A DNA stretch of 64,000 bases from Candidatus Sumerlaeota bacterium. Lineage in GTDB: Bacteria > Sumerlaeota > Sumerlaeia > Sumerlaeales > Sumerlaeaceae. This document shows positions 6,779-63,735 of the stretch, piece by piece; position 1 is the stretch's first letter; each line of letters opens with the position of its first letter. Under the pieces are notes generated by a model. It did no database searches and had not been told where the DNA came from. It saw only the letters and a program-made list of their open reading frames with translations. The position numbers were made by a program, and so were the translations under genes. Where the stretch lies: positions 218,778 to 282,777 of the forward strand of contig JADFCV010000002.1 of assembly GCA_017161655.1 (NCBI GenBank), in the 5' to 3' direction.

Positions 6779-7074
6779 GGTGTGTGTCGTCCTGAATCAT
6801 CTTTTCCCAACACCGAAGAATGGGAACGCCGGCTACTAACCAACCTCATAGTGCGATTTGAGTTCTTCCCGACAAGAAAATCGTTGCAATTGGAAAGAGA
6901 GATTTTGCGCAATGGTAAGTTGAAGCGACGCACTTCGAGGGGTGCCCCCCACCAAGGGCTCGTCTTCACACACAGCGTGAAGGCAGTGGTGCTAAGCAAA
7001 ATAATTCGAGATTTTTACACGGAGAGCCTCTTCGCTAGAGAAGAAAAACGAGGAGCTATGTAGAATACGAGCCG

Positions 7075-8310
7075 ATGAAGAGTCGCCGAGAGAATCTTAA
7101 AAGCGTAAGACACGGACGTTCCAGGAGACATCGGAGCGAGCCTTCGGAGCGTGCGTGGGTATTTCGTTTGTTTTATTTGCTCGGGACTCTCCTGGCCATC
7201 GCTGCCGTCACTCAGGCTGGCTATCGAGCCCTTCTCGACAGTCCCTATTTCGCATTGCGTGAAATCCGCGTGGTAGGACTCTCTCCGGCTCTCGCTCGTG
7301 ACATTGAAGGTCTCGTGAAAGACTGTATCGGTGTCAATCCGAACACTCTTGCATTAAAAGTTGGCGAGATTCGTCGCCGACTTGCCGAGCATCCTCGTTT
7401 GCGCAATGTAACTGTGGAGGTTGCCTACCCCCATGCCGTTGTTGTCAGCGGGGTAGAACGTACCCCCACAGCAATTCTCAGTGCGGATTCGTTTTATCTC
7501 GTAGCACGCGACGCCGTCGTTATCGAACGGTTGCCTCCCAGCGAGTTGCATCGCTATGAACTACCCTACATCACAGGCATTCCACCGCAAGCCATCGAAG
7601 TTGGTAAGAAAGTTAACTCGGATGGTCTCTTGCGATCTCTTGAAATGCTTGAGCTCCTCCGTGAACGAAATCCGGAACTTTACAGCCGCTTCAGCGAAGT
7701 CAATGTGGCCCAGGATCCTATCTCCGAGCTCGATAATGTCACAGCAAGGTTGCGCGGGGGTATGGAGGTTCGCTTTGGTGAAACAAATCCAGCGGAGAAG
7801 CTTGCACTCCTGGATTATTTTATTCAGCAGCAGCAAAATGCAGGGCATGATCCATTTGCCATGGCTTATGTGGATTTACGTGTTCCGAACCAGATTGTCT
7901 ATCTCGACAAAGTGACGGCGGCGGCCTTACGTGCCGGGAAAACAGATCCCCTCTTAGGTAGCATGGGAACGCAGTCTGCAATCAGAGAGGAAGACTCAAT
8001 GCAAGAAGAACGCTCCAACGCGATCGGCGCCAATCCTGATGGAGAGAAGTCTGCTTCGACTTCAGCCAAGAAACGCAGTGCTGCAAAGACGTCAAAGGAA
8101 CCAGACTCTCGTGCTCAACAAGGTTCTGTCGAAGAAAACAACGAAACTCGTGCCGAAGAGCCCGTGTTCGACGCAAATGAGGAGCCCAACCGTGGCACTC
8201 GACGTCCCTTGTGGCGGCCGCAGTTCCCACTGAAGCTATTTGGACGCAAGTCCCGACAAGTTGAAGAAGCTCCCGTACTGCTTGCCCCGAGCGACCCGGG
8301 CGAGCAATAG
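7075..8310 (+). CDS. ftsQ: Cell division protein FtsQ/DivIB (N-terminal TM anchor, POTRA domain, long low-complexity Ser/Glu/Lys/Arg C-terminal tail)
   Basis: TM helix FRLFYLLGTLLAIAAV, then YFALREIRVVGLSPALARDIEGLV (POTRA), immediately upstream of ftsA. The last ~110 aa are compositionally biased. Confidence 0.7.
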   Translation: MKSRRENLKSVRHGRSRRHRSEPSERAWVFRLFYLLGTLLAIAAVTQAGYRALLDSPYFALREIRVVGLSPALARDIEGLVKDCIGVNPNTLALKVGEIRRRLAEHPRLRNVTVEVAYPHAVVVSGVERTPTAILSADSFYLVARDAVVIERLPPSELHRYELPYITGIPPQAIEVGKKVNSDGLLRSLEMLELLRERNPELYSRFSEVNVAQDPISELDNVTARLRGGMEVRFGETNPAEKLALLDYFIQQQQNAGHDPFAMAYVDLRVPNQIVYLDKVTAAALRAGKTDPLLGSMGTQSAIREEDSMQEERSNAIGANPDGEKSASTSAKKRSAAKTSKEPDSRAQQGSVEENNETRAEEPVFDANEEPNRGTRRPLWRPQFPLKLFGRKSRQVEEAPVLLAPSDPGEQ

Positions 8311-30340: not shown

Positions 30341-31414
30341 TTAGCGCCGCTTGCCACGCCCAGCTTTCGCGCGTGTTTTCGCTCGTGCCTTCTGATCCTT
30401 TTTCGTTTGGGGCTTTTGCGCTGCTGTTTTGGCCTTCTTGCGTTTTTTCTCGGCAGCACCTGATTTTTTTCGGCTAGCTGCCATCACTTTGGCTTTTTCC
30501 TTTGCCACCTTCTTCGCTTTGGGCTTTGCTGCGACTTTTGCCTTAGCTGCCTTCTTGGTCTTTTCGACGTCCTTTGTTTCTGATTTCCGCGGGCGACCAC
30601 GCTTCTTCGGTGCAGCTGGTTCTACTGCTGCCGTAACTTCTGTCTTCCGCGGACGCCCTCGTTTTCTCGGCGTGGGTGGTTGTGAGGGCTGGGCACCAGT
30701 TTCGCTTTTGCGCGGTCTCCCGCGGCGTCGCTTAGGCGCAATTTCTTCCGGTTCTTCGTCTAGTTTCTCTTCGATTGCAGCTATTCTCTCGTCCGCAGCC
30801 ACACTTTCCTTCTCTTCGAGCGCACCGGCCTGTTCTTGCGCTTGTTCCTCCTCAGGGCCAATCTCAGCCTCAGCGGCAGCACGTTCGCTTTCCCACTGTT
30901 CGGGTGGAATGCGGATGAAATCGGTTTCCACTAATTTTTCGAGGGCATCCTTGAGCTGATCAAAGACCCGTTTGAATGTGTCCATCGTCCCACCCATGGG
31001 ATCGGGAATCTGCACGTCCTTCCCATGGTAGCCAACGTACTCTTTGAGTAGGAAGGTTTTCCCCCGCGCCACATCGCTCTCGCGGATGGCTTTCTGAACA
31101 TGAAGCGAGGACATGCCAAGGATGAGGTCTGCTTCCTCAAGCATGTGCACCTTCATGGGACGAGAGCGATGGCGGCTGATGTCCACGCCCTCTTCTCTGA
31201 GAAGAAGTTCAGCTTCTGGGGTAGGCAAGAGACCGGTTGGTGTCATCACGCCGGCCGTTGAAATCTCAATCCAATCGATTCCCCGTTCGTGAAGTAGCTT
31301 TTTCAAATATCCTTCAGCCATCGGGCACCGGCAGTTGTCGCCAGTGTCCAGGAGCAACAGTTTTTTCTTCCGAACGCCAGGCTTCAGCTGGTTGTTCAAG
31401 TGTTTTCCCTCCAA
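30341..31414 (-). CDS. Fusion protein: YwlE-type low-molecular-weight phosphatase-like domain with nucleophile Cys replaced by Asp, acidic linker, three AT-hook motifs, and a histone-H1-like Lys/Ala-rich tail
   Basis: The N-terminal domain aligns to B. subtilis YwlE: LLLLDTGDNCRCPMAEGY vs IIFVCTGNTCRSPMAEAL, and TFLLKEYVGYHGKDVQIPDPMGG vs VFTLKEYVTGSHGDVLDPFGG. The tail carries PKRRRGRPRKSE, PRKRGRPRKTE and KKRGRPRKSE (GRP-core AT-hooks), then KKAAKAKVAAKPKAKKVAKEKAK. The start codon is TTG in the DNA. Confidence 0.65.
   Translation of the reverse strand: MEGKHLNNQLKPGVRKKKLLLLDTGDNCRCPMAEGYLKKLLHERGIDWIEISTAGVMTPTGLLPTPEAELLLREEGVDISRHRSRPMKVHMLEEADLILGMSSLHVQKAIRESDVARGKTFLLKEYVGYHGKDVQIPDPMGGTMDTFKRVFDQLKDALEKLVETDFIRIPPEQWESERAAAEAEIGPEEEQAQEQAGALEEKESVAADERIAAIEEKLDEEPEEIAPKRRRGRPRKSETGAQPSQPPTPRKRGRPRKTEVTAAVEPAAPKKRGRPRKSETKDVEKTKKAAKAKVAAKPKAKKVAKEKAKVMAASRKKSGAAEKKRKKAKTAAQKPQTKKDQKARAKTRAKAGRGKRR
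30575..30736 (-). repeat. Intragenic coding tandem repeats encoding the three (K/R)RGRPRK(S/T)E AT-hook units
   Basis: Three imperfect direct repeats of about 60 nt are visible in the DNA (gcggacgccctcgttttctcggcgt / cgcgggcgaccacgcttcttcggtg, etc.). They correspond to aa 227-280 of the protein. Confidence 0.6.
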
Positions 31415-31507: not shown

Positions 31508-31924
31508 TTAAGCCACAGCACCGAGTTTTGCTTTTCCCATGAGTTGCTGCATAGCCTCCTCAAAAAAGGGCTTTTCAATGAGATCTACGGCCCCAGCGGA
31601 AAGCGCCGTTACCCACAGCTCCTCGTCGCCCACATCCGTGACGACGGCGCAGATCACATCTTTCCTTTCACCGAGAATCTCATCGATCAGTTGGGCTACA
31701 TCCGCGCAAGTCTCACCCGCATCAATCAAGACGAGGTCAACCGCTTCCTGTTCGACGACGTTGTGAGCCTCATCCGGCTGGGAAGCTAACCGATATTGCA
31801 CCGGAATCCCAACCTTTTCCCCTGCACAGCGCGCTAAGCGTTCAGCGAGCTCTTTGTCATTGCTCACTACGAGAGCACGCAATGCATTCCCATGCGACCG
31901 CGTCAAACCGTTTGCACCCAGCAT
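31508..31924 (-). CDS. Stand-alone response-regulator receiver (CheY-like REC) protein
   Basis: 138 aa. beta1 ALVVSND, phospho-acceptor Asp in DLVLIDAG, Thr in AVVTD, Lys-Pro in IEKPF. No output domain. Confidence 0.6.
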   Translation of the reverse strand: MLGANGLTRSHGNALRALVVSNDKELAERLARCAGEKVGIPVQYRLASQPDEAHNVVEQEAVDLVLIDAGETCADVAQLIDEILGERKDVICAVVTDVGDEELWVTALSAGAVDLIEKPFFEEAMQQLMGKAKLGAVA

Positions 31925-32188: not shown

Positions 32189-32947
32189 ATGTGGTGCTTC
32201 ACGCTTGAAACCGAACACCCAGCGGCCCCGAACTGTATGCGTCAAGGCGTGAAGACTAGGATTGCCATATATGATTTTGACACCTGTCGCCCAGCCCTTG
32301 AAGCCCATGCCCAAGAGTTGGCGGAGTCGGCAGAAGGACTTGCCCGCTGGGCATCATTCCGGGATTTTATTCAAACCTTTGCTCGTGAGGCTGTAGACAA
32401 TCGCACGTGCGTTATTGGTCAGTTTGATCCTGATGTTGTTTTCGCCTTTGTCCCGGCAGAAGGTTTGGGAGCCAATGATCGCGAAGCTGTGTGGGTCTCG
32501 GTACTTGACCATGCACGTCGACTGATGGGAGGAACCGCCGCTCCCTACTGGCTTGATTTTCTTGACGCGATTGCTCCTGAGGGAATCCCGAAATCACCCA
32601 TTCTCCAAAATTCTTGGCTGGATCCCCACCTTGCACAGGAACTCCAATCGTCGCAGGTTGTGATTTGGGTCTTTTTCAATGCGAGACGTTTTCTGGAAGC
32701 CGTCATTCAGCCACAGCTATCCAAGCGTGGCTTCATGATTTTGCCAGACGAATCTGATGAACAATTGAGCGAACTACGCGTGAAACATCCTGGTTGTCCG
32801 AACAAGGTTTTTCGCATTCCTTGGAACGTGTGGTTTCGCGAAATGGTTGGTGGCGGCTTCAACATGCTCTATCTCATGGCTCTCGTGGCAATCTACTTGC
32901 AGAAACTCGAGCACGCGGTGACAGACAGTGGGCAAAGCGAGCAGTAA
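32189..32947 (+). CDS. Hypothetical protein, first gene of the long co-directional array
   Basis: 252 aa with no recognisable motif (possible alternative start at 32237, MRQGVKTR). Its 3' end overlaps the next ORF by 20 nt. Confidence 0.4.
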   Translation: MWCFTLETEHPAAPNCMRQGVKTRIAIYDFDTCRPALEAHAQELAESAEGLARWASFRDFIQTFAREAVDNRTCVIGQFDPDVVFAFVPAEGLGANDREAVWVSVLDHARRLMGGTAAPYWLDFLDAIAPEGIPKSPILQNSWLDPHLAQELQSSQVVIWVFFNARRFLEAVIQPQLSKRGFMILPDESDEQLSELRVKHPGCPNKVFRIPWNVWFREMVGGGFNMLYLMALVAIYLQKLEHAVTDSGQSEQ

Positions 32948-35225
32948 GCGGCGCTATACGGACGTCGCTCTTTACCGGCGTCTCTTTGGCTATCTCCACG
33001 GCACACGAATGATTGTGGCGCTTCTGGTCGTGTGCATGGTCCTTGAGGGGGCATTCACGGTTCTCACAATTAGCCTTGTCCGGCCGACGCTCGACCTCCT
33101 GGTCAAGAACCGTATTTCCGATTCCTCCAAGGTCCAGCAGAAGGGTGTTTTCGAGATCGGTGCACCTGTGAAGCTACCTGACAACGTTGTGGCAGTGCGC
33201 GCCGTGGGAGAGCTGATTTCCTCACGTGCTGCAGACGAACTGCGTGATCTCTTTGAAGCCGTCATTCGGCCACCCACTCGACGGCTCGTTGTTGATCTTT
33301 CTCAGGTCACGGCCGTCAGCGATGTGGTCTGGGCCCAGTTCCTCTTTGCGAAGCTTCTTACCACTCAAGGCATCAAATTGGATGTCATCGTAGCCGCAAA
33401 CCTCACTTGGCCACCAACCCTTGGTTCGGACGAAAATTTCCGTTTCCTTTCCAGCCTTGATGAGGAGGCCACGCGCATCCTTGCGACTCAAATCGCTCAG
33501 GTCCCCTTGCCCAAGTTGAGCAAGCCGAAAAAAGAAGGCTTTGTTGCCAACCTAAAGCGGCGTGCCGGCGAGGCGGTGATGCCGTACCTTCAAAAGATTC
33601 AAGAATACGTCATGGTGAGCAGCGCCAACAAATTTCGGGTTCTTGCTGGCATTCTGGCGCTGTTAGTCATCTCAGCATTGTGTATGGTGATCGCTTCTTT
33701 TGGCGTCGGCTACCTCAGCGCCTACATGGCCAATCTCTGCGTGACGCGTCTGCGTAATCACGTGATGCGCCACATGCTCCATCTCGATATGGAATTTTTT
33801 AATCGCTACTCAGTTGGCAACCTGATGTCCACTGTGACCCAGGACGTAGCAGCAGTTTCTGGGGCGATCGACATTCTCTTTTCCAACGTTCTAAAAACTC
33901 CAATCACTGTGGCAATGCTCATCGTGGCCATGTTCTTTGTGTCGCCCAAACTAACCCTCTACAGCCTCACGGTGGCGCCTCTCATTGGTCTTCTGCTTTA
34001 CGGAATCGGCCGCCGCGTGCGCAAGGTCAGTCAGCGAATCCAGGAGTTGCGTGCCGTTCTGTCCTCAATTGCCCAGGAATCCTTTGCCGGGATTCGTGTC
34101 GTGAAAGGTTTCAACATGGAAGACCGGCAAGCGGATCGCTACGAGAAGGAAAGCTGGACCGCTTTCAAGCGTGGCCTAAAAACCGTTGTGGCCGAAGAGC
34201 TTGGCACCGGCCTTACGGCCTTCCTTGGTGTTTTCACCGTCGCCGCCATGATTCTCCTTGGTGGCTTTTATGTTCTGCAGACCCGCGAGCTTAGCGGCTC
34301 GGAGTTTGTCCTATTCGTTGTCTTTCTCTCGCAAGTCTTTCGTCCCCTTAAAGGAAGCAGCCGTGTGATTTCGAAAATCCAACGCGGCATGGCCGGAAGC
34401 GACCGCGTGTTCCGGGTCCTGGACCAGCAACCAAATATCAAAGATGATCCTTCGGCTCCCCCGATTGCCGCGCCTCAGCGCGAGATTCGCTTCGAGCATG
34501 TCTGGTTCCGATATCATTCCTCCTCTGACTTTGTGCTGCGCGATATTGATGTGACAATCGAACCAGGCAAAGCACTTGCAATCGTTGGCGAAACGGGGTC
34601 GGGAAAGACCACGCTGGTGAGTCTCTTACCACGTTTCTTTGACCCCAACCAAGGCCGAATCCTTTTCGACGACGTGGACATTCGGACCGTCCGGCTCCGT
34701 TCCCTCCGCGATCTGATTGCCCTCATATCGCAGGACGTTGTTCTTTTCGACGACACAGTCGCCAACAACATCGCCTACGGAATGCCAGCCGACACACCCA
34801 TGGAGCAAATCATTGCGGCGGCCAAAGCGGCAAATGCCCACGACTTCATCATGCGGTTACCAAAGGGGTATGACACGCTTGTCGGAGGTAGGGGAGTCCG
34901 TCTTTCAGGGGGCGAACGCCAGCGCATTTCCATCGCGCGTGCGTTCCTAAAAAACGCTCCCATTCTCATCCTCGACGAGGCAACAAGCCAGCTCGATGCC
35001 GAGACAGAGTCACTGATTCAGCAATCATTGCTCGAAATCATGAAAGACCGCACGGTCTTCGTGGTGGCCCATCGCCTTGCAACCATCTTGCACTGCCACG
35101 AAATTATCGTGCTTGATGCCGGTCGCATAGTCGAGCGAGGGACCCACGACGAGCTCCTTCAACTGGGCGGGCGATATGCGCGATACTATCAACTTCAGTT
35201 TGCCACCGCTGGCGAAAGCTCATGA
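32928..35225 (+). CDS. ABC exporter (fused TMD-NBD, MsbA-like) with a ~170-aa STAS-like domain inserted between TM1 and TM2
   Basis: 765 aa. TM1 MIVALLVVCMVLEGAFTVLTISLV. Then VVAVRAVGELISSRAADELRDLFEAVIRPPTRRLVVDLSQVTAVSDVVWAQFLFAKLLTTQGIKLDVIVAANL, matching the STAS/anti-sigma-antagonist pattern (L.G.L......L...vvDls.V.f.ds.g...l........g..l.l). Then TM2-6 and an NBD (GETGSGKTT; LSGGERQRISIARAF; ILILDEAT). Confidence 0.7.
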   Translation: MGKASSKRRYTDVALYRRLFGYLHGTRMIVALLVVCMVLEGAFTVLTISLVRPTLDLLVKNRISDSSKVQQKGVFEIGAPVKLPDNVVAVRAVGELISSRAADELRDLFEAVIRPPTRRLVVDLSQVTAVSDVVWAQFLFAKLLTTQGIKLDVIVAANLTWPPTLGSDENFRFLSSLDEEATRILATQIAQVPLPKLSKPKKEGFVANLKRRAGEAVMPYLQKIQEYVMVSSANKFRVLAGILALLVISALCMVIASFGVGYLSAYMANLCVTRLRNHVMRHMLHLDMEFFNRYSVGNLMSTVTQDVAAVSGAIDILFSNVLKTPITVAMLIVAMFFVSPKLTLYSLTVAPLIGLLLYGIGRRVRKVSQRIQELRAVLSSIAQESFAGIRVVKGFNMEDRQADRYEKESWTAFKRGLKTVVAEELGTGLTAFLGVFTVAAMILLGGFYVLQTRELSGSEFVLFVVFLSQVFRPLKGSSRVISKIQRGMAGSDRVFRVLDQQPNIKDDPSAPPIAAPQREIRFEHVWFRYHSSSDFVLRDIDVTIEPGKALAIVGETGSGKTTLVSLLPRFFDPNQGRILFDDVDIRTVRLRSLRDLIALISQDVVLFDDTVANNIAYGMPADTPMEQIIAAAKAANAHDFIMRLPKGYDTLVGGRGVRLSGGERQRISIARAFLKNAPILILDEATSQLDAETESLIQQSLLEIMKDRTVFVVAHRLATILHCHEIIVLDAGRIVERGTHDELLQLGGRYARYYQLQFATAGESS

Positions 35226-35256
35226 AAAATAGCCAGAAGGCATTCACTTATCGGTC

Positions 35257-36510
35257 TTGCCGGTTGCAATCAAGCATCACTCACAGATAGCGAAAGCCAT
35301 AAATATGGTGCAATTCGACGATATTCGCTTCGACTGTACGCATTACACAGGCTACAAGCCATGCCGATTTGGTAACGAATGCAAAGGTTGCTGGCACTAC
35401 GAGCCACGTGAGCCTTATTCCGCCGAGCCCGCCCAACCTCTCCGTACGGATGCGCCAGCCCGTTCGACGAACGACACCTCTCCCTTTCGCATTCTCATCA
35501 TCAAAACGGGGGCAATGGGTGACGTCCTCCGGACGACGACGCTTCTTGCTCCGTTACTTCGTCACTACCAGGGAGCAGAGATTACCTGGGTTACAGATGC
35601 TTCTGCTGTTCCTCTCTTGGTTCACAATCCCAAAATACACCGTCTGCTCACTCTCTCCGAAAAAACGAGAGAAAAACTCGCAAATGAGACATTTGATCTC
35701 TTGCTCAATTTCGAGAAAGATCCTGCTCCGTTAGCGCTAGCTGGCCTCGTCCCCGCGCGTTGCCATCGCGGCTTTGCTCCAACGCTGTGGAATACGCCAA
35801 CGGTCTTCAATGAAGCCTCGCGCTACGCACTGCTTCTCGGTGTCAGCGATGAATTGAAATTCCGTATTAACACGAAAACATATCCACAAATTGTTTCGGA
35901 AATGGCTGAGCTTTCTTATGCCCGAGATCCTTACGAACTCTATCTCTCGGAGCACGCTGTGGCAAAACGCGAAAAGCTTTGCAACGAATTGGCTCAGCGA
36001 GAGAGACCATGGATAGGGTTGAATACGGGCTGCGGGTCTGTGTTTCGCACGAAACTCTGGCCGTTAGACCGTTGGGTTGAACTGATTCGCGAGCTTCAAG
36101 CGACACTTCCTGCGGCAACCTTGCTTTTGCTCGGCGGTCCGGCCGAACGTGAAATGAATGCTCAGATCTTGCAGCAATGTCCGGGCGTCATTCACACTGG
36201 CTGCGACAATTCGTTAGAAGAGTTCTTCGGCATCGTGGATGCGTGCGACCTAGTTGTCAGCTCCGACAGCTTGGCCATGCACATTGCGATTGCTCTTAAA
36301 AAGCACGTGGTCGCACTATTTGGATCGACCTCTGCAACGGAAATCGACCTGTTCGACCGTGGCGAAAAAGTGGTCACCGACTTCGATTGCAGTCCGTGCT
36401 ACCTCAAGAATTGCGACAAGAACCCCACGTGCATGCAGGCCATGACTGGCCGACGTGTCGCTGAAGCGGTTCTCCGCCAACTTCAGTCCGTGGTGGGGAA
36501 TGCTCAATGA
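35257..36510 (+). CDS. Glycosyltransferase family 9 (ADP-heptose-dependent heptosyltransferase-like) with N-terminal Cys4 motif
   Basis: The GT9 core FRILIIKTGAMGDVLRTTTLLAPL...GLNTGCGS...LLLLGGPAERE begins at ~aa 77. It is preceded by FDCTHYTGYKPCRFGNECKGCWHY (C-x8-C-x5-C-x2-C). The ORF track start is TTG at 35257; the first ATG is 35305. Confidence 0.65.
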   Translation: MPVAIKHHSQIAKAINMVQFDDIRFDCTHYTGYKPCRFGNECKGCWHYEPREPYSAEPAQPLRTDAPARSTNDTSPFRILIIKTGAMGDVLRTTTLLAPLLRHYQGAEITWVTDASAVPLLVHNPKIHRLLTLSEKTREKLANETFDLLLNFEKDPAPLALAGLVPARCHRGFAPTLWNTPTVFNEASRYALLLGVSDELKFRINTKTYPQIVSEMAELSYARDPYELYLSEHAVAKREKLCNELAQRERPWIGLNTGCGSVFRTKLWPLDRWVELIRELQATLPAATLLLLGGPAEREMNAQILQQCPGVIHTGCDNSLEEFFGIVDACDLVVSSDSLAMHIAIALKKHVVALFGSTSATEIDLFDRGEKVVTDFDCSPCYLKNCDKNPTCMQAMTGRRVAEAVLRQLQSVVGNAQ

Positions 36511-38210
36511 TCGCGATGAGAGAAAAGGGGGCATCTTCTGACAAGGTGCCGTTTCCCTCATCTCTTATCGTGCTACGTGGCACACTTCCCGCATTCCTAG
36601 TTTTTTTGGCATCTCTCTGGCTTCTTTCCTTGGGTCAATTCACAGTGCGGCGCATCACGACTGGCCTCGAGCATCCTTACGTCCAGCTCGACAATGAAGA
36701 AGGTGCACTACTGGCGCAGACGCTTGAGCTGCGCGGCGGCACATTACCTTATCGTCCCCTTGTGGATTATCCTTACATCGTTGGGACCTATCCCCCCCTT
36801 TACCTGGCAGCAGCTGCTTTTTGCACGACGGCGGAGACGCCCTCCTTCTATGGGGGGAGACTCGTATCCGCGATTGCCGCGGCGATGTGTCTAGTGGCTT
36901 TGGCAGTAACGGGATGGCGCTTGGGGCGCTCGTTCTTGTCAGCAGTCGTTGCACCGTCTCTTTTCTTGGGGACGTTTGAGGTTTACAGTTGGTCCCCCTA
37001 TTTCCGTACGGATTTTCTGGCGCTTGCTTTTTCGCTGCTAGGACTCTGCGTTGGGCTCTCTTTTTTCCAGAAACGCGTGGCTCTCGTTTTTTCTGCGCTT
37101 CTGTTCGCATGCGCTTTTTTTACAAAACAAACGTCCATCGCTGCCCCATTAGCGTTGTCTGTTGCATTGCTGGGTCGGAACCGCCGAGCTGTCGCGTTGT
37201 TTGTTTTCACCTACCTCAGCGCAGTCGCGATCCCCTTTGCTCTACTCACTTTGCTCACTCGCGGCCAGTTCTTTGTTCACACAGTGCTCTACAATGCTAA
37301 CCGCATGAACTGGCCTGATCTGATTGTATGGGCCAAACATGTTTGGCGTTTCTATCCGTGGCTCCTGGGTCTTGTTGTTGCCGCGCTGGTGTTGCCGCAC
37401 CTCGAAGAATTAAGCGGCAAGTCATCTTCGATAGACCCGTCTAAGAATGACACCAGCGATGCATCAACTCATCCCGCCGGTGACGCAGAATTGTTATCGG
37501 TTACTCCGCCATCTTGCGCTCGTAGCAAGGATTCTCAAGGCGTGCTGAGCAGTGCCGCAGCGATTTATTTCCTCTTCTCTCTTATAAATTTCGTTGCGAT
37601 AGCAAAGGCGGGCAGCGCCGAAAACTATCTCCTGGAACCTCTCGCAGCTGCTGCTCTCCTTGTAGGCACGGCGTTAGGTCGCTTTGCGCGTCCTTCCCCA
37701 TCTGCAAATGACCATTCCTTGCACGTCCAGCGCGTCCTTACTGTATTGTTCCTCTGCCATGCCGTCCACGTTGCTCACTGGGCGCCCGTCATGTTTTCAC
37801 CAGCCAAGCAACCGACGTCCGAAGATTTCAAACTCGCAGCAGTTCTTACGCAGCGTCTGCGCTCGGTCGCCGATCCCGTCATTAGCGAGCTTGCGGGCTA
37901 TACGATTTTCGCGGGGAAAAAAGTGCTCTTTCAGCCTTTTATTATGAGTGAGTTGGCACGGCAGGGTCGCTGGGACGAAAGTCACTTCGTGCGCGACATT
38001 GCCAACCACCGTTTCTCTTTAATTGCCACGACCGTCGATCTTACCACCAACGCCTACTCGGATGCTTTCACACCTGCCATGCGTGAGGCGATTCGGACGC
38101 ATTACGAACGTGCCGAAAAGTTTGAGTCCGGTCAGCTTTGGCGGTATTATCTTTTTTGTCCCAAACGCGATCCTGTCCAGCCGATCACCGGGAAGAAACA
38201 AAGCGGATGA
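36507..38210 (+). CDS. Polytopic membrane protein resembling GT-C-fold glycosyltransferases (ArnT/PMT/GT39/GT87-like)
   Basis: 567 aa with at least 10 predicted TM helices. First loop DYPYIVGTYPPLY, FTKQTSIAAPL. Soluble C-terminal domain of ~130 aa. The start overlaps the GT9 stop (ATGA). Confidence 0.4.
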   Translation: MIAMREKGASSDKVPFPSSLIVLRGTLPAFLVFLASLWLLSLGQFTVRRITTGLEHPYVQLDNEEGALLAQTLELRGGTLPYRPLVDYPYIVGTYPPLYLAAAAFCTTAETPSFYGGRLVSAIAAAMCLVALAVTGWRLGRSFLSAVVAPSLFLGTFEVYSWSPYFRTDFLALAFSLLGLCVGLSFFQKRVALVFSALLFACAFFTKQTSIAAPLALSVALLGRNRRAVALFVFTYLSAVAIPFALLTLLTRGQFFVHTVLYNANRMNWPDLIVWAKHVWRFYPWLLGLVVAALVLPHLEELSGKSSSIDPSKNDTSDASTHPAGDAELLSVTPPSCARSKDSQGVLSSAAAIYFLFSLINFVAIAKAGSAENYLLEPLAAAALLVGTALGRFARPSPSANDHSLHVQRVLTVLFLCHAVHVAHWAPVMFSPAKQPTSEDFKLAAVLTQRLRSVADPVISELAGYTIFAGKKVLFQPFIMSELARQGRWDESHFVRDIANHRFSLIATTVDLTTNAYSDAFTPAMREAIRTHYERAEKFESGQLWRYYLFCPKRDPVQPITGKKQSG

Positions 38211-39106
38211 GGCACGATTCCTCACATCTTGTAGGACGCCTCCTCATGCTGACCTCTGCTCTTTGCTTCGGAGTTATGGCTCTTCTCACCCGCATTCTTG
38301 CTTCTCTTCCCAGTGCCGAGAAGGTGTTCTTCCGAAGTTTTATCGGTCTCCTTCTCACAGCTGCTGCGTTCGTTGTCTTCTGTCGGCCTTTACCTCGGCC
38401 ACGCAATTATCGAGGGCTAATATGGCGCGGGATCTTTGGCAGTTTGGCGCTGCTCTGTTACTTTTACGCTATCGACCGTTGCGGCCTGCCGAAAGCCACA
38501 CTCTATTGTTACACCTATCCCGTGTGGGCGACACTTCTGGCATGGGCCGACTTGGGAGAGCGGCCATCGTCGCATGCCATTCTGGCCACTCTCGTTGCTG
38601 TGCTTGGCGTTGTTTTGACCCTGGAATTTCATGCAGACGCGCTTCTATCATTTTCGCATGCGGATGTCATTGGCCTACTGGCTGGGGCCTTTACGGGGGC
38701 TGCGATTGTCAGCGTTCGGCGCCTTCGTCAGGTTGAGTCTTCATGGTGGATTGTCATCTTCTTCACTTCCATCGGAGCTCTTCTCAGTGCCCCATTTCTT
38801 TTTGTTTCGTTCAAGCCGCCGGCGATGCTTGAGTGGCTAGGACTCATCGCACTTGCAGCGGCCGCCGCTGTGGCTCAGCTTCTGATGACAAAAGCCTATC
38901 GCACGCTCACCGCTGCAGAGGGAAGTTTGCTCTCGCTCACTGTGGTGCCATGGAGCTCCCTCTTTTCTGTCATTTTTCTAAGCGAAGTGCCACCGCTTCG
39001 CTTTTGGATAGGCGCTGCGGTTGTGTTCCTCGCAGTTGGGTGGCTCGTCCTTCACCAGACGAGCACACGTCCTGCCACACTGCCAGAGTCGCCGCTCGTC
39101 GACTGA
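38207..39106 (+). CDS. EamA/DMT-superfamily transporter (10-TM drug/metabolite exporter family)
   Basis: Two EamA-like halves (LALLCYFYAIDRCGLPKATLYCYTYPVWATLLAW; LLSLTVVPWSSLFSVIFLSE). The ATG at 38207 overlaps the upstream stop (ATGA). The ORF track lists a longer form from 38138. Confidence 0.7.
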   Translation: MRHDSSHLVGRLLMLTSALCFGVMALLTRILASLPSAEKVFFRSFIGLLLTAAAFVVFCRPLPRPRNYRGLIWRGIFGSLALLCYFYAIDRCGLPKATLYCYTYPVWATLLAWADLGERPSSHAILATLVAVLGVVLTLEFHADALLSFSHADVIGLLAGAFTGAAIVSVRRLRQVESSWWIVIFFTSIGALLSAPFLFVSFKPPAMLEWLGLIALAAAAAVAQLLMTKAYRTLTAAEGSLLSLTVVPWSSLFSVIFLSEVPPLRFWIGAAVVFLAVGWLVLHQTSTRPATLPESPLVD

Positions 39107-39194: not shown

Positions 39195-40433
39195 ATGGTG
39201 AGTCACAATCATGGGCCAGTGGTTTCCTTGCAACCGCAGCTCCGGCGGCTTGTGGAGCAAGGAGAAATAGGAATTCCTGAACTTGCGGATGCGATCCTCG
39301 ACGGCGCGGAAAGCGTCGCCGCAAGCGATGTCCACATCGAGGCCCATGCCCAGTCCTACGTGGTACGTTTTCGTGTAGATGGAATGCTGCTCGATGTCAT
39401 TTCGATTCCCAAGTCACTCGGGGAAAACCTCATTGGCCGCCTGAAGATGATGGCCCGGGTCCTTACTTACAGGAAACGTGTGCCGCAGGACGGACGGGTA
39501 GAAGCTGGAGGAATCGGGATTAGGGCGGCGTTCATGCCAACCTTGCACGGTGAAAAGGCTGTCCTTCGGCTGCCTGTCGCTAACGTTCCGCAACGTCTTC
39601 ATGAGCTAGGAATGACTGATGACGACCGCACATGCCTAGAACGCGAGCTGATCGGCGGGCACGGAGTGATTTTTCTCACTGGCCCTTCCAGTAGCGGCAA
39701 GAGCACCACCATTTATGCTGCTCTCCGCTACATTCTTGAGCACTCGCCCCTGATACCAAATATTCTCACACTCGAAGATCCCATCGAGCAGGAGGTTCCA
39801 GGCGTCAATCAGACCCAAATCGACCCAGCTGGTGGGCTGACCTTTCCTGCCGGGCTTCGGACTATACTGCGGATGGATCCTGACGTCATTGTCGTGGGGG
39901 AGATTCGCGACGAAGAGACCGCGCGCATTGCTGTCCACGCTGGACTAAGTGGCCATAGAGTCTTAACCACCATTCACTCCGGATCCTGCGCACAGGTCTA
40001 TGCCCGCCTCCTTCACATGGGGATCGAGCCGTTTCTTCTCGCAACCGCAGTCTCTCTCATCATGGCCCAGCGCCTGGCGCGGCGCGTGTGCTCTTCTTGT
40101 GCTCAGCCACGTCCACTCGACCAGTGGGAAACCCGCCTCCTATCCGGGGAAGATTCGAGTGATTTTACCGGTGTGTCAGCCCCAGGGTGCCCAGACTGTT
40201 TCGGGACGGGTGCTCGTGGCCGATTGGCCATATTTGAATTGGCGGTCCCTTCTGCCGCAGTACGTCAAGCTGTCCTGGAGTGCGCGCCAGCACCTTTGAT
40301 CGCGGAGCTTCTCGAGGCGGCGGGAATGCGTCCTTTGCGCGTTGCTCTGCGTAACGCTGTCGTTGCCCACCAAGTTAGCATCGAAGAAGCAATTCGCCTG
40401 ACTGGAGGAATTAGGGATGAACGGGCCAGCTAA
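39195..40433 (+). CDS. GspE/PilB/ComGA-family secretion ATPase, minimal form (no N1 domain) with C-terminal tetracysteine motif
   Basis: SDVHIEAH...VRFRVDGML, RLKMMARVLTYRKRVPQDGRV. Walker A variant LTGPSSSGKSTTIYAAL, VGEIRDEETARIAVHAGLSGHRVLTTIHS, and CSSC...CPDC. ATG at 39195 preceded by GAGGTGG; the ORF track start is TTG at 39174. Confidence 0.8.
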   Translation: MVSHNHGPVVSLQPQLRRLVEQGEIGIPELADAILDGAESVAASDVHIEAHAQSYVVRFRVDGMLLDVISIPKSLGENLIGRLKMMARVLTYRKRVPQDGRVEAGGIGIRAAFMPTLHGEKAVLRLPVANVPQRLHELGMTDDDRTCLERELIGGHGVIFLTGPSSSGKSTTIYAALRYILEHSPLIPNILTLEDPIEQEVPGVNQTQIDPAGGLTFPAGLRTILRMDPDVIVVGEIRDEETARIAVHAGLSGHRVLTTIHSGSCAQVYARLLHMGIEPFLLATAVSLIMAQRLARRVCSSCAQPRPLDQWETRLLSGEDSSDFTGVSAPGCPDCFGTGARGRLAIFELAVPSAAVRQAVLECAPAPLIAELLEAAGMRPLRVALRNAVVAHQVSIEEAIRLTGGIRDERAS

Positions 40434-42528
40434 AGAGGAACCGAAACACTCAAAGCAGGATTCTTCGATCGAGCATGAAAGCGACGTAAGAATCCGGCCG
40501 GGATACGTTCCTTATGTTTCGAAAACGCATCGTTTGGTTACCGAGCGCGAAATCTCTCCGTGGGGTGCTGCCAAAACGTTTCTCGCTTGGGCGTTTCTCG
40601 GATTCCTTTTGCTTATTGTGTCCTCGACTGTGCGAGATGGACGGTTCCCACGTTCGGAAAACATCCGTTTTGCCATTGGGCTGTCTGGCCTCGCATGGGG
40701 GCTCTGCTATCTCATCGTACGTCTTACTGAAAGAGCTGCGCGATGGGCTGTCGGCGGCATAAAAAGCCAAAGTCTGTCGCGCATATACGCAGCGATCGTT
40801 GCATCCGTACTTCTTGGCACCCTATCCGTGTATTCCCCCCTCCCACTTCTGATCCGCCATTATCTACTTTCTGAGAATATATCGCCTGGTTTTGAGACAA
40901 AAGACTTGCTTCGGGATTTCTCGCAAGCCGTGGCCTTAGGGATCTGGGCGTTATTTACTGTTTTTGTTTGGCTCTATCGGCCACTGGCAACGAAATCCTC
41001 TGCTACCCGGCACTCCAGGGTTCTTGTGCTCGTAGTAGCGGGTTCTTTGCTGCTGGTGATGATGATAGTCCGGGGTATGTATGAGAATCACCCACAACAG
41101 ACCATCGGAGGATTGTGGCTAAGCTACCTTGTTCTGAGCGATTTGCACCCACAATGGGATCGAGAAGTAGTCAAATTCGCTCCGCAACTTGCTCTTTTGT
41201 CTGCGTTTGCCATCCCTCTGTTTGTCGTGTTACTATTGCTGCTCAACGCAAGAACTTGGGGTCCCGACGTTTCGATAAGAAGTCCTTTAGGGCCTATTCG
41301 CCCGCGGGTAAGCATCTCAGCAGCTCTTAATGCTCTTATCCACGGCGCACTGGTCGTTGGTGCAATAGCCTGCTTCAGTGTGGGAGCAACCGCCACAAGT
41401 CCCTTGGAGACACCCAGGGCCATGTGGTTGTTATTTATTCTTTTTCTCGTTAGCTTCTTGGTCGGCCGCTTGTCCCTTGCAGCATTTATGCTGCCTCAAA
41501 GGGCCCGGTGGCAGCCATCTTTTTACGAACATCTCGCTTTGGCAGTCGAAAGTGGCTATCCTCTGTCGGACGCAATTCTTAGCTACCTCGAGTCTGACAT
41601 TCCCTCATCAGTCAAGATGGCTCTGTTTCAGATTCTCCACAGTATCGAGCTCGGCGTCTCTCTTCCTCAGGCTTTACTTGAGAATCCTGTAATGTTTCCA
41701 GCTCAAGATGCAGCCTTAATCGCGAGCGCAGAGGATCCAGCCACACTTGCTCAAACACTTCGCTATTTGGCGAACCAGGAGCGTCGCCGTAGCTACGAGA
41801 CTCTGAGCCTTTCCTATTTGCGACTCATTGCTCTCGAGGCAATTGCGGCGGTGATAATCTTCTTCTTCATCTCAATAGTCTCGCTGCCGAAAATCCTGGC
41901 TGTTTCGACTCAAGCCACAGTCATACCTATCCCGCAGTTTTCGCAGGCGGTCTTCGCTGCGTCGGACTGGGTTACGGAACACGTTCTTGAGATTCTGGCA
42001 CTGCTATTTCTTGCCTATCTACTCATTCGGGTAATTTACTCCCGCAGTCTTATCTTTCGGATCATCGTATGGCGCCTGTGTCCTATCCTGAAGCACTATC
42101 ATTGGGCAAAGCGCCTCGCGGGCTTCAGTCTTGGTCTGCGCCTCCAACTTCAGCGGGGGGCTCACATCGCGGAAGGAATTAAGAACGCTCAGGCTGTTGT
42201 GGGGGATTTGGTCTTTAGCCGGTTAGCCGATCGCCTTGCTGATCTGGTAAACTTGGGGAACCCTCTTTACGTTGCCGTGGGAAGCGTGCGTGCGTTCCCC
42301 GCTTCATTCGCCGCGTTTCTCGCACTGGGGGCTCGTAGTGAACGACTTCCTGAGGTACTCGAGCTGCTCGCCGAGGACTATCAGCGTCAAACGACACTGT
42401 TGCGTGAGCGGCTACTTGGGATTGCCAGCATCCTCGTCGCTCTCGCTGTGCTAATTCTAGCGGTCTGCTACGTAATGGCGGTTTACTTGGTCATGTTTAG
42501 GGTCGTCTTGGGAGTTCCTTATGAATAG
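40417..42528 (+). CDS. GspF/PilC-like platform protein (two T2SSF domains) with ~340-aa N-terminal polytopic extension
   Basis: 703 aa. T2SSF-like FYEHLALAVESGYPLSDAILSYLE...GVSLPQALLENPVMFPAQDAALIASAEDPATLAQTLRYLA at ~aa 350-480. A second at ~aa 520-700 (RLAGFSLGLRLQLQRGAHIAEGIKNA...LPEVLELLAEDYQRQ). About 8 TM helices precede the first. The start overlaps the gspE-like stop. Confidence 0.6.
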   Translation: MNGPAKEEPKHSKQDSSIEHESDVRIRPGYVPYVSKTHRLVTEREISPWGAAKTFLAWAFLGFLLLIVSSTVRDGRFPRSENIRFAIGLSGLAWGLCYLIVRLTERAARWAVGGIKSQSLSRIYAAIVASVLLGTLSVYSPLPLLIRHYLLSENISPGFETKDLLRDFSQAVALGIWALFTVFVWLYRPLATKSSATRHSRVLVLVVAGSLLLVMMIVRGMYENHPQQTIGGLWLSYLVLSDLHPQWDREVVKFAPQLALLSAFAIPLFVVLLLLLNARTWGPDVSIRSPLGPIRPRVSISAALNALIHGALVVGAIACFSVGATATSPLETPRAMWLLFILFLVSFLVGRLSLAAFMLPQRARWQPSFYEHLALAVESGYPLSDAILSYLESDIPSSVKMALFQILHSIELGVSLPQALLENPVMFPAQDAALIASAEDPATLAQTLRYLANQERRRSYETLSLSYLRLIALEAIAAVIIFFFISIVSLPKILAVSTQATVIPIPQFSQAVFAASDWVTEHVLEILALLFLAYLLIRVIYSRSLIFRIIVWRLCPILKHYHWAKRLAGFSLGLRLQLQRGAHIAEGIKNAQAVVGDLVFSRLADRLADLVNLGNPLYVAVGSVRAFPASFAAFLALGARSERLPEVLELLAEDYQRQTTLLRERLLGIASILVALAVLILAVCYVMAVYLVMFRVVLGVPYE

Positions 42529-42707
42529 CAAAATCACAAGAGGGCTGTTCGAATTGCCTTTCCGTGCCGAGAGAGGGCCAGTCCACGTTGCCCACCAAAC
42601 GGCCCCGCGGCATCCGACTCTGCACTTGCAACGACAAGAGCTTTCATGTGGGCCACGGTCTCCTAACGGGGTGACAAATCATCTTCACGTGAGAGGAGAG
42701 AGCGCGA

Positions 42708-43766
42708 ATGCATGCTTACGATGATCTGGAAATCATTTTAGCCGAATTGGCCCATCTCGATGCTGCGGGACTGAATGCGGAAGAAGGGATAGCGGCATTG
42801 CGCGAGCGGATTCGGAGCCGGCCGCTTCGCCAGGCGCTCGATGAACTTGAGGAAAACTGCCGATGCGGACTGACACTCGGCCAGGCTATGGCTCGGGTGG
42901 GAGGTATCTTTCATCCTGTCATACGCGGGCTTGTTGTGGCAGGGGAGAAAAGCGGGGATCTGGCCGGCGCCCTCGTGAAGTCAGCGTCTTTCCTCGCTAT
43001 GCGACGCAGTGTCCTGAGCGCACTTCGCACCGCAGGGCTTTATCCGTTTGCCGTTCTCACCGTTGGAGCCATTGTCTCAGTGCTTCTCGCCTTCTTTATT
43101 TTACCTCATCAGTGGGCACTCGTCGAGAAAATGCACCTTCAAATCTGGCGGACAGACCACACTCAGTCGCCGCATTCCGCATTCGTTGCCGCCAGCATTG
43201 CCATCCGTGCTTCTGCTCTGCTCATTTGTGCTCTCTGGCTAGCGGCCGTGGTTTTAGCTCTCCTCATGCTGAAGGCTCCCCATCAACCTCTTCTGCACCG
43301 CGTCATCGCGCGGCTGCCTGGTTTTGGCCCTGTTGTCAGGCGCTACTTCTTATTCCACTTCGCGTCCGTTCTCGAAATGCAGCTCAGCCGCGGCGTTCCG
43401 CTCACACAAGCGCTGGATGCCCTGGCGGACGATGCAAGTCTTCCACTGGTAGCTGAAGCAGCCCGTTGTGCTCGAAACTCTCTTGAGCTGGGCGCGCCGA
43501 TGTCAAACGGCCTTGTGCTGACGCCGATCGTTTTCCCCCCACAAGAGCTATGGTTCTTGCGTCACGCTGAACGCTACGAACATGTGCCCCGCTATTTTGC
43601 TGAGCTTGCAAACAAAACGGCCGCGGAAATCCGGACCATAGAAAGACTTATACTCAGATTCGAGCCGCTAGCAATCGGCCTACTCAGCATCGTTGTTGCC
43701 ATGTTTCTCGTTTCAGTCTTTCTCCCGATTTCGCGTTGGTATCAATTCATTTCCCTGGGGGAGTGA
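42708..43766 (+). CDS. GspF/PilC-like platform protein (two T2SSF-like domains, compact 352 aa)
   Basis: LRQALDELEENCRCGLTLGQAMARVGGIFHPVIRGLVVAGEKSGDLAGALVKSASF and VVRRYFLFHFASVLEMQLSRGVPLTQALDAL...PQELWFLRHAERYEHVPRYFAELA, each followed by TM helices. Confidence 0.6.
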   Translation: MHAYDDLEIILAELAHLDAAGLNAEEGIAALRERIRSRPLRQALDELEENCRCGLTLGQAMARVGGIFHPVIRGLVVAGEKSGDLAGALVKSASFLAMRRSVLSALRTAGLYPFAVLTVGAIVSVLLAFFILPHQWALVEKMHLQIWRTDHTQSPHSAFVAASIAIRASALLICALWLAAVVLALLMLKAPHQPLLHRVIARLPGFGPVVRRYFLFHFASVLEMQLSRGVPLTQALDALADDASLPLVAEAARCARNSLELGAPMSNGLVLTPIVFPPQELWFLRHAERYEHVPRYFAELANKTAAEIRTIERLILRFEPLAIGLLSIVVAMFLVSVFLPISRWYQFISLGE

Positions 43767-43770
43767 AACG

Positions 43771-44205
43771 ATGATGAAGAGAGTCATGATTTCAAAGGCT
43801 GGGGGAGTGCACCGGCAAGCCGCGATCACGCTCCTGGAGATGCTTGTCGTCATAGCAGTTCTCAACATAGCCTTTTTGGGTTATCTCTTACTCGCGGATC
43901 GAGCCATGAGTACGGCGGCCTGGGGACGCGACATGACACTTGCCCTGACCCTGGCCCAGAACGAACTTGAATGGTGGCAATCAGCGTCGGCTGAAGCTCG
44001 CGCGAACCTGGGGCCAGGTGACCACAATTTTGCCAACCCAACCGCGGAGAACATCCGTCAACCATTTACCGCAAGACTTCACGTCGAGCCCGTAGGAGAT
44101 AGCCTTCTCCTACTTCGCGCTGTTGTTCAACGCGAACACTGGCACCGCCCAGTTCAAATCGAGCTCGAAACACTCATTCCAAGAGAGGGAGGACAGCGGC
44201 AATGA
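43771..44205 (+). CDS. Prepilin/pseudopilin-like protein (N-terminal methylation-type hydrophobic helix, non-canonical cleavage site)
   Basis: MMKRVMISKAGGVHRQAAITLLEMLVVIAVLNIAFLGYLL is a class-III-signal-like N-terminus with Glu at the expected +5 but Ala, not Gly, before the helix. GGGGGAG Shine-Dalgarno upstream of the ATG at 43771. Confidence 0.5.
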   Translation: MMKRVMISKAGGVHRQAAITLLEMLVVIAVLNIAFLGYLLLADRAMSTAAWGRDMTLALTLAQNELEWWQSASAEARANLGPGDHNFANPTAENIRQPFTARLHVEPVGDSLLLLRAVVQREHWHRPVQIELETLIPREGGQRQ

Positions 44206-44786
44206 CAAGATCAGCACCATCGCTTCGTGCGTCGCAGCGTTCCCTTCGCAACGCATTCACACTTATCGAACAACTCATTGTCATCGCGATTGTCTCAATG
44301 CTGAGCGCGTCACTGCTCGTGGCTTTCCTGTTTTGTCTCAGGCTGGAGAAAGCAATATCCGCCCAGCAAACTCTCTCTGACACTTTTGCTGAGCTCGATC
44401 GCACTTGGCGCCACGATATTCACGGAGCTAATCGCGTGTCGTTGGTCTCGTCCAGAGCTAGCGATACACTCACGACTGTCGTTTTGATAGAGTATGATCA
44501 ACGCGACTCGCGGTTTCCATGCCGTTATGAAATTTCCCCAGACAGGCGCGGGCGGTTTACGCTTGTTCGTGCGATTGCGGGCGATCGCAAGACAACCACC
44601 ACCCAGACCCTGGCGCGCGAGCTTATGGGAGCAACGGTTTCGCTAGATGAGGAAAAGTCCCTCTACGAGCTGCGCATCACTGCCACAGCTGGATTTGACG
44701 TTTTTCATGCTCGCCAGGACCTCCGCATCATCGCGAGCGGCAAAGCGCAACCAATAAAAACCATTTTCGGGGAGGTGCCCCAATGA
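44202..44786 (+). CDS. Prepilin/pseudopilin-like protein with A|FTLIE-type leader site
   Basis: MTRSAPSLRASQRSLRNAFTLIEQLIVIAIVSMLSASLLVAFLF. FTLIE with Glu+5 is canonical, but Ala replaces Gly at position -1. The start overlaps the upstream stop (ATGA). Confidence 0.6.
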   Translation: MTRSAPSLRASQRSLRNAFTLIEQLIVIAIVSMLSASLLVAFLFCLRLEKAISAQQTLSDTFAELDRTWRHDIHGANRVSLVSSRASDTLTTVVLIEYDQRDSRFPCRYEISPDRRGRFTLVRAIAGDRKTTTTQTLARELMGATVSLDEEKSLYELRITATAGFDVFHARQDLRIIASGKAQPIKTIFGEVPQ

Positions 44787-45163
44787 GACTCCTCCGTTCT
44801 GCAACGCCTGTTGGTCGCCATCCCAGCCGTGGCTCAACGATGCTCTATGTCGGCGGAATCGTCGCTGTTGCCATGATTCTTCTGTTCGGGCTTACCGAGC
44901 AAAGCATCGCACACACACATCACGTCGGCAGCCTTGTTAACCGGGCACGCGCCGAGTGGCTCCTCCGAGGAGGGTATGTCATCTTATCAGCCCCCGAGAC
45001 CCGTCTGCCGAGCAAGGAAAAGCTACATCTTCCAGTTCGGACAGGGAATTTACAGTGTACAGTCGAACACACATCGGCGGGACTCGCACTTCTGGCAACA
45101 GCGAGCGTGCCCAGGGACAATCCGCGTCTCAGCGTAATCGCGAAGTGGTTACGTCAAGACTGA
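44783..45163 (+). CDS. Small membrane-anchored protein (possible minor pilin-like or assembly component), last gene of the array
   Basis: 126 aa with a single N-terminal TM MLYVGGIVAVAMILLFGLTEQ. The start overlaps the upstream stop (ATGA). No recognisable motif. Confidence 0.35.
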   Translation: MRLLRSATPVGRHPSRGSTMLYVGGIVAVAMILLFGLTEQSIAHTHHVGSLVNRARAEWLLRGGYVILSAPETRLPSKEKLHLPVRTGNLQCTVEHTSAGLALLATASVPRDNPRLSVIAKWLRQD

Positions 45164-63307: not shown

Positions 63308-63735
63308 TGTTTACAAGCTCCTGATTCTCAATCCATGAACGGAATTCAGACGGGTGCGGCAACGCAAGGGCCGCGGGGGAGACAACATACGAGAGTTCCT
63401 GAGTTCGTAGGGGGGTATGAAGCTGGATAGACAGCGCGCTACCCCGGCGAGGTTCGCCACCGTCGTCACAAGAGTGAGGATCCATAGATTCGACTGTTGT
63501 CTTCTCCAAAGATTCTAATTCGCAAACCCTTAGGAGAAGCCATCACAAGCGCTTCTCGGTGCCTACGAGGTTAGCTGACGGGCTCGGCGAGAGAAGCCTT
63601 GCCTATGCGCGTTACTGCCACGCAATTCGCCCCACGTTCTGGGTCCCCCGTTCAGCTTCAAGCTGATTCGGCATTTTCCAGTCCCAAGTTACGCAAGAGC
63701 TCACTTCCCTATTCAGCTGCCGATCTTGCCCCGCA

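Follow-up and report, generated by a model that had tools for sequence, protein, structure and literature searches.

The window analysed here (a stretch of 64,000 nucleotides from contig JADFCV010000002.1 of a Candidatus Sumerlaeota bacterium) encodes two GspF/PilC-type platform proteins in tandem, behind a single GspE/PilB-type assembly ATPase. The first, long GspF, carries an additional membrane domain ahead of its platform core, while the second, short GspF, is compact. We have very little doubt that long GspF is a real, translated and conserved fusion of an orphan domain of eight transmembrane (TM) helices to a divergent GspF, and that it is paired with a canonical GspF. The two genes and their parts are listed below, with positions counted from the start of the window (TMS, transmembrane segment of the platform core).

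40417-42528, plus strand: long GspF, ATG start, 703 amino acids; orphan N-terminal domain followed by a two-repeat GspF/PilC core
40417..41511, plus strand: N-terminal orphan domain (residues 1-365); K/R-rich cytoplasmic tail (1-53), then eight predicted TM helices
41512..42528, plus strand: long GspF core (residues 366-703); two T2SSF repeats and three TMS (470-488, 523-541, 666-684)
42708-43766, plus strand: short GspF, 352 amino acids; two T2SSF repeats and three TMS, with Y112-P113 in TMS1 and E319-P320 in TMS3

A search for homologues of the same architecture, one of the checks named in an earlier note on the letters and reading frames of this DNA, found the long and short GspF pair in five other independent loci. 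The comparisons below therefore draw on six independent loci (the window, L002, L046, L048, L050 and L051) and on L001, a near-identical relative of the window.

Two platform proteins with both T2SSF repeats

Profile searches uphold the earlier note's reading of 40417-42528 as a GspF/PilC-like protein of 703 amino acids. Pfam T2SSF (PF00482; gathering cut-off 25.2 bits) matches long GspF in two stretches (71 bits, E = 1.2e-19), and the NCBIfam GspF, HofC, PilC and ComGB profiles cover its residues 368-695, beginning at profile position ~63-68. The second, compact GspF that the note placed at 42708-43766 (352 amino acids) indeed adjoins it, with two T2SSF stretches (97 bits, E = 9.6e-28) and with the same NCBIfam profiles covering residues 6-343, again from profile position ~63-68. 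BLASTP pairs residues 379-695 of long GspF with residues 20-343 of short GspF. Pfam, NCBIfam and this alignment agree with the note that each paralog carries both T2SSF repeats, and the scenario in which profile searches would leave the T2SSF assignment without support fails. In the long core each cytoplasmic domain precedes a TMS, and all three core TMS are present. Foldseek searches with an AF2 single-sequence model of long GspF (pLDDT 52.5) gave matches for the first cytoplasmic domain (Cyto1) only, which resembles the cytoplasmic domains of EpsF, OutF, PilC and TcpE (target-normalised TM-score 0.67-0.83).

Both paralogs lack the canonical N-domain of ~60 amino acids and score below the NCBIfam equivalog cut-offs for GspF, PilC, HofC, ComGB and XpsF. 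Long and short GspF reach 63 and 128.7 bits, respectively, against the TIGR02120 GspF equivalog (cut-off 424), and 57 bits (E = 2e-15) and 68 bits (E = 1e-18) against the ComGB profile (cut-off 240). A profile search with short GspF against 5.8 billion sequences returned only seven clusters of its type (353-360 amino acids), with a gap from E = 1e-87 to E = 1e-23 between this family and canonical GspFs. A metagenome scan with the short-GspF alignment returned one weak canonical locus only.

In the trimer of PulF, TMS1 and TMS3 make up the central channel, with a Tyr-Pro pair and a Glu-Pro pair at its constriction, and TMS2 and a nonessential N-domain lie at the periphery (PMC10790770). The Tyr-Pro (TMS1) and Glu-Pro (TMS3) pairs are reported to be conserved in all GspF/PilC proteins, and ComGB has no N-domain (PMC10790770). 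We compared these positions in an alignment of 24 sequences, comprising six long cores, six short paralogs and twelve canonical GspFs.

TMS1 Tyr column: canonical 12/12; short 6/6; long 3/6
TMS1 Pro column: canonical 12/12; short 6/6; long 0/6
TMS3 Glu column: canonical 9/12 (rest Q/G); short 6/6; long 0/6
TMS3 Pro column: canonical 12/12; short 6/6; long 0/6
Pro at the end of TMS3: canonical 11/12; short 6/6; long 0/6
E474 column: canonical V/L/M; short V/L; long Glu 6/6

E474 lies 3-4 residues past the TMS1 Tyr position, one helical turn deeper on the same helix face, in a register that an alignment gap leaves uncertain by ±1 residue. Long-family members have a degenerate version of the Cyto1 'GExSG' motif, which the short family keeps intact. 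Short GspF thus resembles an ordinary platform core that, like ComGB, has no N-domain. In the long core, which appears to have been rewired, the canonical pore and kink residues are gone and one intramembrane Glu stands at a new site. With the TMS1 Pro and the TMS3 Glu-Pro missing, long GspF is, on its sequence, a divergent member of the T2SSF superfamily and not a canonical platform protein.

The N-terminal orphan domain

Since the GspF-type profile alignment begins at residue 368, the extra N-terminal part of long GspF comprises residues 1-365. The earlier note had estimated about eight TM helices in about 340 residues; the number of helices stands, and the length is corrected to ~365 by the profile boundary. 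A Kyte-Doolittle scan gives hydrophobic segments at 54-72, 83-101, 127-145, 168-186, 202-220, 258-276, 306-324 and 338-356, and the AF2 model, at its low confidence, puts long helices at these eight segments. A module of 7-8 TM helices and 313-391 amino acids is present in every ortholog (6/6). Putative cytoplasmic loops hold 9, 5, 4 and 4 Lys and Arg residues against 3, 3, 2 and 1 in the periplasmic loops, which fits an N-in/C-in topology by the positive-inside rule. With this topology Cyto1 would lie in the cytoplasm, at the end of a linker of ~10 residues that follows TM8.

Several lines of evidence indicate translation of this domain. The long GspF ATG is preceded at a distance of 7-13 nt by a GGAGGA Shine-Dalgarno sequence and falls inside the 3' end of the ATPase gene, an overlap of 17 nt, and a GGAGG-type Shine-Dalgarno sequence with the upstream start occurs in 6/6 loci (start overlapping the ATPase stop in 5/6). 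The L001 contig, from a Logan assembly and 98.7% identical, has the same 703-codon open reading frame (ORF) with zero indels; the 44 differences between the two long GspF genes are split 4/11/29 over codon positions 1/2/3. Against L001, Nei-Gojobori pN/pS is 0.25 over the N-terminal domain (codons 1-365) and 0.30 over the GspF core; the ATPase and short GspF genes give 0.23 and 0.18, respectively. The N-terminal domain is under purifying selection. Each of the five further independent loci also keeps one unbroken long GspF ORF, of 647-728 amino acids. By these sequence features the long GspF ORF is real and its N-terminal domain is translated from the first ATG, and the downstream start that the earlier note had held possible is contradicted by the Shine-Dalgarno sequence, the codon-position bias, pN/pS and the conservation of the ORF.

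The domain itself turns over rapidly. Between L051 and L002 it is 50% identical (core 69%), and its homology is visible only between such close members; elsewhere within the family the domain is ~20% identical, where the core reaches ~33%, short GspF 50% and the ATPase 71%. Five residues are invariant among the six orthologs (R109, L174, R201, A208 and L342). The best-conserved positions, E105, R109, W185-P189 ('WLYRP') and R201, all fall in predicted cytoplasmic loops; indels are frequent in the predicted periplasmic loops.

No family assignment emerged for the domain. When residues 1-365 were compared by phmmer with 1.84 billion representative proteins, the protein itself was the only match, and word-index searches with full-length long GspF and its C-terminal half returned only itself or weak canonical GspFs. 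The six orthologous domains gave no consistent match to Pfam or NCBIfam at permissive thresholds; the lone GspN match, in 1/6 (14.8 bits, cut-off 140), is regarded as noise. Neither a six-ortholog profile run against PDB sequences nor the long-GspF alignment run against metagenomes gave a match. Profile comparison with hhalign led us to reject both a degenerate extra GspF repeat (probability 0.1% against the GspF core) and an internal 4+4 TM duplication (probability 0.2%). A prepilin peptidase was rejected as well, with no Peptidase_A24 (PF01478) match at E<=5 in 6/6 domains. No Asp is invariant in the alignments (D167 is kept in 5/6), nor is any Cys, His or Ser, and R109 and R201 are the only invariant polar residues; this pattern speaks against the active site of a peptidase or transferase. 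GspL/GspM/GspC and PilM/N/O fare no better as candidates, given the lack of a consistent profile match and a module of 7-8 TM helices that is neither bitopic nor cytoplasmic. As far as these searches reach, the domain is an orphan membrane domain without family assignment. The earlier note's suggestion of a fused accessory component could thus not be demonstrated, as similarity to GspL/M/C, PilM/N/O, prepilin peptidase or other families was not found; the domain could nevertheless be a functional substitute for such components. With its 365 amino acids it would deserve its own entry in a protein-family database, and it illustrates that a core component of a machine can acquire an orphan membrane domain that is then kept throughout a lineage.

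Gene block, neighbours and distribution

The GspF pair sits in a co-directional block in which starts and stops mostly overlap. The other genes of the block are as follows.

32189-32947, plus strand: 252-amino-acid ORF that opens the block; one C-terminal hydrophobic segment (219-237)
33009-35225, plus strand: ABC exporter with an N-terminal extension of ~200 amino acids and weak STAS matches at residues 82-142
35305-36510, plus strand: GT9, glycosyltransferase-type gene
36507-38210, plus strand: 567-amino-acid polytopic protein whose orthologs match GT87/PMT_2, i.e., GT-C type
38246-39106, plus strand: EamA, directly upstream of the ATPase gene
39195-40433, plus strand: GspE/PilB-type ATPase, 412 amino acids; Walker A GPSSSGKST and CxxC...CxxC
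43771-44205, plus strand: pilin-like protein 1, 144 amino acids; prepilin N-methylation motif QAA/ITLLE (slash, cleavage position)
44202-44786, plus strand: pilin-like protein 2, 194 amino acids; prepilin motif NA/FTLIE
44783-45163, plus strand: third small protein, 126 amino acids; N-terminal TM, no Glu5, no family match

Assembly ATPases typically carry a tetracysteine CxxC...CxxC motif, and their N1 domain, in GspE, binds GspL in the type II secretion system (T2SS). The ATPase of the block matches GspE profile positions 99-486, and this start at position 99 indicates that it has no N1 domain. Its best scores are 363 bits for GspE and 327 bits for PilB, compared with 38 bits for the TadA-family model. 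Among the 40 window ORFs scanned against Pfam (64-kb window) we found no secretin, prepilin peptidase, GspL/M/C or PilM/N/O family, and no second assembly ATPase appeared in the block or among these ORFs. Both prepilin-like proteins have Ala instead of Gly at the predicted -1 cleavage position. The position of the third small protein is filled in all loci (119-127 amino acids). By its gene content the locus encodes a minimal type IV filament or T2SS-like machine, comprising one N1-less ATPase, three pilin-like proteins and two full-length GspF paralogs.

The 252-amino-acid ORF has no Pfam, NCBIfam or PDB-sequence match, and its AF2 single-sequence model is unusable (pLDDT 51.4). It is 60% identical to its L002 ortholog, above the conservation of short GspF, and is a candidate for a cytoplasmic accessory protein of the system that has so far escaped recognition. 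The upstream genes from this ORF to EamA (32189..39106) are kept in the related loci as far as the flanks extend. The ABC, GT9, GT-C and EamA set suggests a module for periplasmic glycosylation dependent on polyprenyl-phosphate sugars beside the pilin genes, and glycosylation of the pilins by these adjoining glycan genes is a possibility.

A spacer of 179 nt between long and short GspF (42529-42707) is found only in the window and in L001; in the other loci the two genes overlap or lie <=18 nt apart. A structured RNA in the spacer was rejected (z = +0.82, no Rfam match). In L001 a 37-amino-acid minus-strand ORF is called within it. Elsewhere in the window, a gene on the minus strand (30341-31414) combines a low-molecular-weight phosphotyrosine phosphatase domain with a C-terminal region that has an AT-hook match, and adjoins a response-regulator receiver gene (31508-31924, minus strand). 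The same arrangement occurs in L001, and L002 has ORFs that correspond to it in size, strand and position. At 63545-63683 on the minus strand, a full-length c-di-AMP riboswitch match (RF00379, 84 bits) sits just upstream of an amino-acid permease ORF (61274-63307, minus strand).

All six loci have a single ATPase gene followed by long and short GspF genes that are adjacent or overlapping, and in every locus that could be inspected the order is ABC, GT9, GT-C-like gene, EamA, ATPase, long GspF, short GspF and three small genes. With the ATPase as query, the nearest match among GTDB representative genomes is a Candidatus Sumerlaeaceae metagenome-assembled genome (MAG), L002, with 71% identity and identical gene order. 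The next is a Sumerlaeota MAG, L003, with 43% identity and a different context. The L003 ATPase (6003-7238) has no GspF-like ORF adjacent within the 10-kb downstream flank, which indicates that such ATPases also exist outside platform clusters in this phylum. Twelve other loci, whose fetched flanks contain a GspF, have one GspF ORF each (344-468 amino acids). Distance trees of the long and short families have the same topology, which points to co-inheritance; the two paralogs are not resolved as sister duplicates. From this distribution, the paired-platform system is probably a small, rare family of the Sumerlaeota lineage. Literature searches on Sumerlaeota in combination with type II secretion, pili or secretion systems turned up no description of the family, as judged by titles and abstracts. 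The atypical long core, the lack of an N-domain in both paralogs, the apparently N1-less ATPase and the small, rare family all go beyond what the earlier note had proposed.

A candidate heteromeric platform and its comparison with known systems

The interpretation we favour, tentatively and at somewhat less than even odds, is a heteromeric platform built from both paralogs, with the 8-TM module at its periphery. It is suggested by their constant co-occurrence behind one ATPase, the congruent trees, the complementary motifs and the precedent of Tad systems, in which two platform genes presumably form a heteromer (PMC6668835, PMC10790770). Long and short GspF would co-assemble into one platform beneath the ATPase hexamer, where the short subunit(s) would provide the canonical ATPase-coupling and channel elements and the long subunit would add a modified acidic pore residue (E474). 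As the PulF N-domain is nonessential and peripheral, an N-terminal TM fusion is sterically plausible, and a peripheral N-terminus of the GspF core together with a linker of ~10 residues would keep the 8-TM block outside the oligomer, in the place that the dispensable PulF N-domain takes. It may lie against Cyto1 on the membrane-facing side, with its conserved cytoplasmic loops facing the ATPase or the Cyto domains. The module could then act as a built-in membrane anchor, a stator or a (pilin-)docking surface. In classical systems separate bitopic proteins (GspL/M/C, PilM/N/O) serve as the anchor and docking layer. Given an N1-less ATPase and no GspL/M/C or PilM/N/O recognised among the proteins scanned in the cluster, such a role would be the most economical one for the 8-TM block.

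Several points weigh against this heteromeric platform. The association of long and short GspF is inferred from sequence, only six loci are known, and the position of E474 carries the register uncertainty given above. A PulF-type trimer of identical subunits does not obviously fit two full-length paralogs. Few invariant residues and ~20% identity fit a loosely constrained anchor and do not point to a specific activity, and the single-sequence AF2 model is poor (pLDDT 52.5). Genes for accessory proteins, a secretin and a peptidase may lie beyond the 64-kb window, which is part of a 447-kb contig, and an accessory role is also conceivable for the 252-amino-acid ORF and the third small protein. 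A bolder version, which we regard as rather doubtful, would make the system an undescribed subclass of type IV filaments, with an obligate heteromer, a pore acid shifted from TMS3 to TMS1 and an 8-TM domain that replaces the GspL/M/C (PilM/N/O) layer, perhaps coupled to the GT-C, EamA and ABC genes.

Alternatively, the paralogs could form independent homo-oligomeric platforms that take turns on one ATPase, for different pilin sets or for assembly versus disassembly or regulation, with the 8-TM module as a specialisation of the second platform. Each paralog is formally complete (both T2SSF repeats, three core TMS), a single GspE-like ATPase is seen in the block and among the window ORFs scanned, and the invariant TM Glu of the long family would permit a pore of its own. 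However, the long core is without the residues reported as universal in GspF/PilC and has a degenerate GExSG-type motif, and the strict co-occurrence, gene overlaps and congruent trees favour an obligate pair, so that we consider independent platforms unlikely.

An enzyme or transport module in the N-terminal domain is a poorer explanation, with perhaps one chance in eight or so to our minds. It could modify pilins, act as a flippase tied to the GT9, GT-C, EamA and ABC genes, or be a non-homologous prepilin peptidase. Eight TM helices are a typical size for membrane enzymes and transporters of this kind, the cluster lies directly 3' of conserved same-strand glycan-type genes, and a prepilin peptidase was not found among the window ORFs scanned. 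Against this, 6/6 domains are without a match to Peptidase_A24 or to a transporter or enzyme family, only R109 and R201 are invariant among polar residues (no Asp, Cys, His or Ser), and the sequence turns over fast, with indel-filled periplasmic loops. Synteny also runs past the block on both sides, which makes the adjacency of the glycan genes weak evidence that may mirror genome collinearity. That the N-terminal 365 codons are untranslated, or that the long gene is a decaying, non-functional paralog, is hardly credible: an ATG (M358) 11 codons upstream of the core would give a product of ~346 amino acids, near the size of the short paralog, and the domain has no homologs outside the family, but neither ATG nor GTG occurs within ~35 codons of the boundary in L002, L048 and L050, no internal start near it is conserved across the six loci, all of them keep the Shine-Dalgarno sequence and upstream start, the third-position bias, pN/pS of 0.25 and lack of indels relative to L001 indicate constraint, and ORFs of 647-728 amino acids with a conserved TM pattern are intact across lineages whose short GspFs are just 39-52% identical.

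Whether GspF/PilC proteins act as dimers or trimers is debated, as is what their Tyr-Pro/Glu-Pro constriction does (PMC10790770). A canonical subunit with an altered partner would offer a built-in asymmetry with which to test stoichiometry, pore composition and the anchoring of a platform without classical accessory proteins.

Among known systems, the GspF/PulF/EpsF/PilC proteins (~400 amino acids) share with both paralogs the two T2SSF repeats and three core TMS, and short GspF also keeps their channel motifs. Both paralogs differ from them in having no N-domain of ~60 amino acids and in scoring far under the equivalog cut-offs. Long GspF differs further, without the channel Pro residues and TMS3 Glu and with a TMS1 Glu and a 365-amino-acid 8-TM domain, and each system here has two full-length platform copies. 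The ComGA/ComGB system is similar in its short ATPase, N-domain-less platform, few pilins and lack of PilMNO/GspLM in the locus, and both paralogs match the ComGB profile; unlike Com, which has one platform gene, there are two here, and the scores remain below the ComGB cut-off. We know of no polytopic extension described for ComGB.

In the survey of Denise et al., paired platform genes occur only in Tad/Epd systems, with one T2SSF domain each, and arose from gene fission (PMC6668835). Two homologous platform genes in tandem in one system are thus a feature shared with TadB-TadC. However, TadB and TadC have one T2SSF domain each and the paralogs here have two, which sets them apart from a TadB/TadC-type pair, and the ATPase is of the GspE/PilB type with CxxC motifs and is not TadA-like. 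GspL/GspM/GspC and PilM/N/O may be analogous in role to the N-terminal domain, in that they anchor the ATPase-platform complex and dock pilins; they are bitopic or cytoplasmic proteins with defined folds and Pfam families, in contrast to a polytopic domain with no detectable similarity to them. Archaeal ArlJ/FlaJ and archaeal PilC are also platform proteins with more than three TM helices (7-9), in which the extra helices follow the T2SSF domains, spread out and not gathered in an N-terminal block of their own. Unlike these archaeal platforms, the core described here groups with the bacterial GspF/PilC/ComGB profiles.

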